From Octopus vulgaris (taxonomy: Eukaryota), in contig OX597829.1 in the NCBI GenBank assembly GCA_951406725.2, positions 15,562,001-15,626,000 of the forward strand: a stretch of 64,000 nt of DNA. Direction: 5' to 3'. Shown here one piece after another: positions 19,824 through 20,326 of this stretch. Made by a program: the position numbers and the translations under genes. Positions within the stretch are counted from its first letter, which is position 1, and the number at the start of each line of letters is the position of its first letter. Under the pieces are notes generated by a model. The model saw nothing but the letters and a program-made list of their open reading frames with translations, ran no database searches and was not told the origin of the DNA.

Positions 19824-20326
19824 TTTTGCAATTAAGGACAACTTCTTGATAAGGAAAACTTAACAAGAAATTATCGGGTAGATAGCGTGAAAAACCTCAT
19901 AAAAGAAAAAATTTCGAAAATAATTCTTTCTTATTGAACATATTAATTTATATATAGAGGGCATTATTATACATACATGCCACACGCTAAGAGGGACAAA
20001 ATTAGTCATTTCTACCAAAAATTTTACTAATCCCACCGAATGCAATTTTCCAAAGTAAGACATTTAAAAATATGGACTTGTATCACCTGTGATTTCATAC
20101 CTCTGTATTCATCAGCAAGTCTGGACGCATCATAAATAAACGAACCCAACTCGTCTAAGCCGAGCAACTATCTGATCAACTTCAACGAAGCACATGGGTG
20201 GGTTTACATATATTACATCCGGTAAATGGCAGACTTATACGAATTGCATTTCGGGGAAGGAAAAAGTTTTTTCGGAATAAAAATTTAGCAATTAAGGACA
20301 ACTTCTTGATAAGGAAAACTTAACAA
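19824..20326 (-). mobile_element. 460-bp hammerhead-bearing unit with 39-bp terminal direct repeat (retrozyme-like)
   Basis: 19828-19866 is identical to 20288-20326. Colinear homolog of the 481-bp unit at 46161-47882. (TA)n on both sides. Confidence 0.85.
20075..20121 (-). ncRNA. Type I hammerhead ribozyme
   Basis: Minus strand: GACTTG-CTGATGA-ATAC agag GTAT-GAAA-TCAC ag GTGA-TA-CAAGTC. Complete canonical core; stems I, II and III all pair. Confidence 0.9.

Follow-up and report, generated by a model that had tools for sequence, protein, structure and literature searches.

A solo non-LTR retrozyme and its diverged sister array in Octopus vulgaris, with a probable Penelope-like mode of insertion

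The repeat at 19824-20326 of the window (the 64,000-nucleotide stretch of Octopus vulgaris contig OX597829.1 analysed here) represents a family of a published class, the animal non-LTR retrozymes. We consider it likely that this solo element is a non-coding parasite of Penelope-like elements (PLEs), copied from the RNA of a tandem array by PLE initiation at a fixed internal site. A search of openly available main texts gave no description of the family formed by the solo element and a second, tandem locus in the window, and an earlier description elsewhere may exist. The features discussed below are collected in Table 1.

Table 1. Features of the solo element, the sister array and their neighbours (window coordinates)
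Feature	Position	Strand	Remarks
Solo retrozyme insertion	19824..20326	minus	460-bp unit (20326-19867) plus terminal extension
Terminal repeat, 5' copy	20288..20326	minus	39 bp exact; 42/43 with one mismatch when extended to 20284
Terminal repeat, 3' copy	19828..19866	minus	Length equals PLE 'tail' of 30-40 bp
(TA)n tract, 5' junction	20326..20349		
(TA)n tract, 3' junction	19716..19824		
Type I hammerhead	20075..20121	minus	Structural scan
Stem I	20121-20116/20080-20075	minus	6 bp; core 20115-20109
Stem II	20108-20105/20100-20097	minus	4 bp; GAAA 20096-20093
Stem III	20093-20089/20086-20082	minus	4 bp plus A-U pair
Predicted cleavage	after 20081	minus	
Predicted long rod around hammerhead	20033..20256	minus	Folding prediction
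Conserved 16-bp hairpin	19837..19875	minus	z -5.7; candidate initiation/recognition stem-loop
Array counterpart of hairpin	47828-47865	plus	z -4.2
Sister family array	46160..47883	plus	3.6 x 481 bp, 99% alike, in (TA)n
Three intact array hammerheads	cores 46609, 47090, 47571	plus	
pLTR-like island, minimal PLE-type hammerhead	19532..19715	minus	Core 19660; directly downstream of solo element across TA tract
Related pLTR-like island, minimal hammerhead	47908..48110	plus	Core 47980, one mismatch; directly downstream of array
Third pLTR-like island, degenerate hammerhead	53651-53846	minus	
Broken Penelope-like element	41904..44315	plus	RT, CX4CXXC linker and GIY-YIG, with (TA)n on both sides; a candidate for the partner class only

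Anatomy of the solo element, its hammerhead and its relatives

The original prediction described this repeat as one unit plus a 39-bp terminal direct repeat, colinear on the minus strand with a 481-bp tandem unit elsewhere in the window but clearly diverged from it. Coordinates, strand and letters all proved right: the period is 460 bp, the insertion amounts to 1.09 units, and over its full length the solo element can be aligned with every unit of the array at 76-77% identity (411 of 535 columns; BLAST E ~1e-99). The three array units differ from one another at only four positions, and with two loci within the window the family is multicopy and dispersed. GC content is 33%, and no ORF of at least 120 codons is contained in either repeat. 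The 39-bp repeat excludes the ribozyme, leaving the insertion with a single hammerhead, and taken alone it shows no structure beyond that of shuffled sequences (z 0.12). Since one hammerhead makes the release of a unit-length RNA by that copy alone impossible, the solo copy is probably a dead end.

The hammerhead has an intact core and all three helices. A structural scan of both window strands returned six matches: the three array hammerheads, that of the solo element and two minimal PLE-type motifs. In the shuffle controls, the strict scan gave no match in 3000 shuffles of the solo element on two strands, and the loose scan gave none in 11 of 12 block-shuffled windows and two in the remaining one, against six in the real window. 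No Rfam model, those for hammerheads included, had a match in the window at the gathering threshold; around the solo element, relaxing to E<=10 brought up no hammerhead model and only microsatellite-driven matches. The helix I and II sizes match the 6 bp and 4 bp that are canonical for animal type I hammerheads (PMC4209133). The isolated 47-nt hammerhead folds with z -1.9 and its predicted fold is not the active form, so that folding energy by itself gives the hammerhead no support.

In both families the core is predicted to pair, in the minimum-energy fold, with the helix III 5' strand, and the active fold lies 3.9-6.7 kcal/mol above this minimum under a model without tertiary contacts. Helix III is predicted at 0 and -0.2 kcal/mol as a hairpin, compared with -11.8 and -13.9 kcal/mol as a two-copy duplex. 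Barely stable intramolecularly yet strong when two molecules pair, it would support cleavage mainly as double hammerheads, a mode known for tandem repeats (PMC4209133). The modelled energetics thus suggest that multimers may be cut in this way and that monomers may be protected. For comparison, one of nine Xenopus retrozyme dimers was cleaved and eight were not (bioRxiv 10.64898/2026.07.22.740005).

Both loci have the sequence-level characters of non-LTR retrozymes, including a GC content below 45% and a length of a few hundred bp. As described in PMC7229834 and bioRxiv 10.64898/2026.07.22.740005, animal members of the class likewise have a non-coding, low-GC, strongly self-paired unit with one type I hammerhead, and occur as tandem arrays and solo monomers alongside coexisting PLEs, which here share the same window; the latter source treats solo monomers as a regular form. 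At 460-481 bp the unit is slightly above the 150-450 bp of PMC7229834 and inside the 51-972 bp of the bioRxiv report. Helix III, with 4-5 bp and a loop of 1-2 nt, is longer than the 1-2 bp usual in animal non-LTR retrozymes. Plant LTR retrozymes are also non-coding and hammerhead-bearing with a terminal direct repeat (PMC7229834; bioRxiv 10.64898/2026.07.22.740005). That identity was rejected: the solo element has a single hammerhead of type I, not type III, which lies outside the 39-bp repeat rather than inside both long terminal repeats.

Family members were found in contigs from three organisms in four runs (3198, 902, 8 and 108 contigs), of which X18 may derive from the source of the window itself. 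Units are joined head to tail in contigs of run X20, and in contigs of organism D the unit closes on itself at approximately 459 bp. Run X1, tentatively taken as RNA, also yielded a head-to-tail joint, for which tandem DNA is an equally good source; the contigs of the four runs cannot separate an RNA circle from tandem DNA. The hammerhead region is remodelled in these relatives. Two X20 contigs cross it with stretches of 86 and 124 other letters in its place, while loose contig ends in X19 and X1 carry a helix III loop of one base and give the upstream stem in yet a third version. A variant common among related copies makes G-U of one pair in stem I. At 19966-19982, contigs of all four runs contain a short tandem duplication, local to this site, that marks further subfamilies. 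Summed contig depth drops 30- to 100-fold across 20079-20163 (X18, X19) and is two- to fivefold greater upstream of the conserved hairpin than downstream. Contig depth is not copy number, and the dips could arise from filtering or from the 80% cut-off, so neither pattern was counted as evidence. An exact-pattern homologue search found nothing in metagenome contigs and nothing in viral contigs; the one prokaryote genome match was dismissed as a chance match of only 20 nt without stem I.

Divergence of the hammerhead and selection on the RNA fold

Stem I had been read as covarying, GACTTG/CAAGTC in the solo element against GTTCTG/CAGAAC in the array, with three double changes counted by pairing the six letters adjoining the core in each family. 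The letters are correct. Position-by-position homology is improbable, however, as BLAST, MAFFT and a global aligner all place a 6-nt gap on both the 5' and the 3' strand of stem I. In this gapped register, which was read from one of four scoring schemes, the stem I of the solo element matches the distal part of a longer, internally looped stem I in the array, with one compensatory pair. Given the gap on both strands, the parsimonious history is a paired gain or loss of a helix segment plus one compensatory pair. Judged from the alignments, stem I thus probably records about two events rather than three covarying pairs, and the helix is preserved under either reading. Stem II does differ between the families, as claimed for the replacement by ATAC/GTAT, but in both length and loop, and with no confident alignment the change is remodelling rather than countable covariation. 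The array stem II has a U-U mismatch at its base, for which the axolotl HHR_Amex2 provides a precedent (PMC7229834).

Conservation of the core tells a similarly mixed story. All 12 core positions are invariant, yet at 81.6% background identity this has a chance of ~0.09 (hand arithmetic), and core invariance by itself is unremarkable. Taken whole, the segment with the hammerhead has the lowest similarity of six unit segments, with 34 of 69 columns identical (49%; 74% without gaps). Identical columns in the other five number 98/127, 35/60, 19/22, 67/82 and 111/135, so that four of these lie at 77-86% and the variable stem upstream at 58%.

The broader claim, that covariation indicates selection on the ribozyme fold, is supported in part: selection on the RNA fold has moderate support, and covariation in the hammerhead was overstated. 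Circular folding of the sense strand gave z -6.6 for the solo unit and -5.1 for the array unit, as against -1.9 and -2.0 for the antisense (25 shuffles each). The predicted folds pair 67-68% of each unit and contain 17/154 and 21/163 G-U pairs. To avoid circularity, pairs predicted from one family were scored on the other. With the structure taken from the solo element and scored on the array, pairing survived in 26 of the 42 pairs that had changed (62% against 36% under the null, with 0 of 5000 permutations as high), and 7 of 10 double changes were kept (P 0.01), two of the seven lying in the poorly alignable stem II. In the reverse direction, 19 of 36 changed pairs were kept (53% against 40%, P 0.02), and double changes did not exceed the null (3/6, P 0.29). 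The permutation null used for these counts ignores clustering of changes.

Four double-sided compensatory pairs (20256:20033, 20244:20045, 20233:20056 and 20216:20127) fall in the predicted rod around the hammerhead. Variants among related copies broke 5 of 11 paired positions where 7.2 were expected, which is not significant (P 0.15); this comparison covered 18 variants at a frequency of at least 35% in X18, among the 40 listed, and partner changes may be missing from it. Two families are insufficient for significance of the R-scape type. Overall, selection on the structure of the unit RNA is moderately supported, mostly outside the ribozyme.

Insertion ends and neighbouring elements

The start point of the solo element was correctly reported to differ from that of the array: the solo element begins 246 nt upstream of a cleavage site and the array, at 46160, only 13 nt upstream of one. 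The array opens with helix III (46160-46172), as if the RT had halted at the ribozyme junction. The original prediction missed the near-coincidence of the two 3' ends. Measured from the cleavage site, these lie 257 and 267 nt downstream, and they are 2-9 nt apart, the solo element ending 9-14 nt and the array 16-18 nt after the conserved hairpin. The 39-bp overlap covers most of this hairpin, which needs 9 nt upstream of the repeat to form. Ends are visible in two insertions only, and by a post hoc hand estimate a match within 10 nt has a ~4-5% chance. An apparently fixed 3' end is seen in two of two insertions, forming the one end cluster visible, and the overlap of tail length in one of two.

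Both insertions sit in (TA)n, in a window with 53 such tracts and abundant microsatellites and broken retroelements, a repeat landscape reminiscent of cephalopod genomes, and because of this placement a target duplication cannot be read. As no insertion end falls at the cleavage site, the template there was unbroken, either as an uncleaved multimer or as a religated circle. The idea that a permuted, slightly more-than-monomer copy was made from circular or multimeric RNA therefore stands as far as the more-than-unit RNA template is concerned, but the free start points that 'permuted' suggests sit poorly with a 3' end that looks fixed. The ends, the TA targets and the 39-bp extension of the two insertions fit Penelope-type internal initiation on an uncleaved multimer or circle.

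PLEs likewise form partial tandems with a variable 5' end and an internal 3' end beside a stem-loop downstream of the hammerhead, carry a 30-40 bp extension, and choose microsatellite or AT-rich targets in which target duplication is not visible (PMC11167929, 10.1101/2021.04.23.441226, PMC4209133). In vitro, the RT of the one PLE studied (PAc) started internally at a stem-loop downstream of the hammerhead, cut AT-rich DNA by preference and used unprocessed RNA, and two start sites delimited a 30-40 bp tail (PMC11167929); tails are described at either end, with (TA)n preferred by some clades (10.1101/2021.04.23.441226). Unlike PLEs, the unit has no ORF, its hammerhead is of canonical size, and one end cluster is visible rather than two. 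The PAc stem-loop is AC-rich (PMC11167929), whereas the conserved hairpin here is AU-rich.

The window also contains PLE pieces. The broken PLE lies 1.8 kb from the array; its linker is of the Neptune/Nematis type, and its RT and GIY-YIG matches both fall below the Pfam cut-off. The 41769-44377 region contains this frameshifted element with its RT frame of 610 codons, and the minus strand of 135 bp at its 5' end resembles a degenerate hammerhead-bearing pseudo-LTR (pLTR). Comparison of the unit with the PLE and pLTR pieces within the window revealed no similarity beyond AT-rich matches of 13-25 nt. The three pLTR-like islands of Table 1 measure 184-203 bp, lie between (TA)n tracts and are 72-75% alike. 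In two of the three cases a retrozyme insertion of the same orientation lies immediately upstream, despite the 53 TA tracts available; stacking at a hot spot or preferential targeting might account for this adjacency. A degenerate hammerhead-like motif with one core change, seen by eye and missed by the scan, lies at 44850-44900 (plus strand) in a further pLTR-like island (44503-45069).

Other repeats in the window include a broken LINE at 22740-26610 (minus strand), in which an ORF precedes the RT and endonuclease-like frames and to which a fragment at ~16400-16790 is related, and a broken non-LTR RT element at 50850-53260 (minus strand) with (ATT)n flanks and, by eye, a C-terminus of the restriction-like endonuclease type. 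Dispersed 200-bp repeats at 30936-31139, 45599-45808 and 60634-60850, 88-91% alike and on opposite strands, are probably SINE-like, as is a 172-bp near-dimer at 58711-59035.

Proposed origin of the insertions

Taking the anatomy, the common 3' end of two insertions, the TA targets, the strand-biased fold and the structure-keeping substitutions as the direct observations, we propose the following route. Transcription of tandem arrays such as that at 46160-47883, on the strand that carries the hammerheads, would yield a multimeric RNA with extensive folding. The type I hammerheads, to judge from their anatomy, would cut mainly as double hammerheads to give unit RNAs, which may be circularised. 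The RT/GIY-YIG protein of a PLE would then nick a (TA)n tract, and cDNA synthesis would begin internally, at one fixed position shortly 3' of the conserved hairpin and ~260 nt past the point of cleavage. As the ends suggest, the RT would pass intact cleavage sites and stop at a variable point, leaving 1.09 units in the solo element and 3.6 in the array. A more specific version is tentative, and we put it forward as a possibility somewhat short of an even chance: the PLE RT may recognise the conserved hairpin and start there, with the 39-bp overlap a true PLE tail, the hairpin and rod together the mobilisation signal, and the hammerhead an exchangeable module altered by paired indels and swapped between subfamilies.

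An element of the same class might instead have been copied from a true circle on which priming had no fixed position, the agreement of the 3' ends and the overlap of 39 bp both being coincidental. Both insertions pass through cleavage sites and exceed one unit, the three array units differ at so few positions, the unit folds well as a circle, and a rolling-circle model has been proposed (PMC7229834), all of which such priming would accommodate. We nevertheless regard it as unlikely, given that two diverged families end within 2-9 nt beside a local hairpin of strong conservation; the route proposed above already allows for a circular template on which initiation is internal and fixed. It is very unlikely that the unit is the detached pseudo-LTR of an autonomous PLE absent from the window, present as 5'-truncated partial tandems, rather than an independent non-coding replicon. 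In Xenopus, 24 of 57 retrozyme families match known TEs, of which 21 of 22 are PLEs, matched at their ends (bioRxiv 10.64898/2026.07.22.740005); the ends here are PLE-like, and truncated pLTR islands are frequent in the window. Opposed to these points are an array in which 3.6 units follow one another head to tail without intervening coding sequence, a hammerhead of canonical rather than minimal size, the closure of the unit at ~459 bp in the organism D contigs and a PLE in the window without a match to the unit. A detached-pLTR origin of the family as such would be compatible with the route proposed here if copies adjoin an RT/GIY-YIG ORF in register.

Helitrons have fixed termini, 5' TC and 3' CTRR. 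The hairpin near a fixed 3' end and the AT context recall such termini, and a tandem array is also what a DNA-level repeat would give, whether a non-autonomous Helitron-like element or a satellite that recombination or rolling-circle DNA has spread, the hammerhead being incidental. We hold this to be highly improbable: the strand bias and the G-U richness of the fold are what an RNA would show, and the hammerhead was retained despite the remodelling of stems I and II. Identity with a non-autonomous Helitron was rejected, since the 5' ends differ and the two insertions share no CTRR end.

Since the retrozyme class has been published before, the family in itself extends a catalogue, and its value is mechanistic. 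The enzyme and template that move animal retrozymes are still argued from co-occurrence with PLEs and pLTR similarity, as is their PLE origin in bioRxiv 10.64898/2026.07.22.740005, where the mobilisation mechanism is listed as future work. The main texts searched gave no account of retrozyme insertion ends or of PLE-type tails on such insertions. The high copy number, diverged subfamilies, clean TA junctions and apparently fixed 3' end of the octopus family suit an end-counting test of mobilisation, and one and the same hammerhead occurs in the family with naturally differing helix I lengths. If the more specific, hairpin-recognition version of the route is true, the insertions would provide insertion-level evidence for PLE internal initiation of animal retrozymes over free priming on a rolling circle. 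They would also identify a cis element of 40 nt that could be assayed in the existing PAc-type in vitro system.
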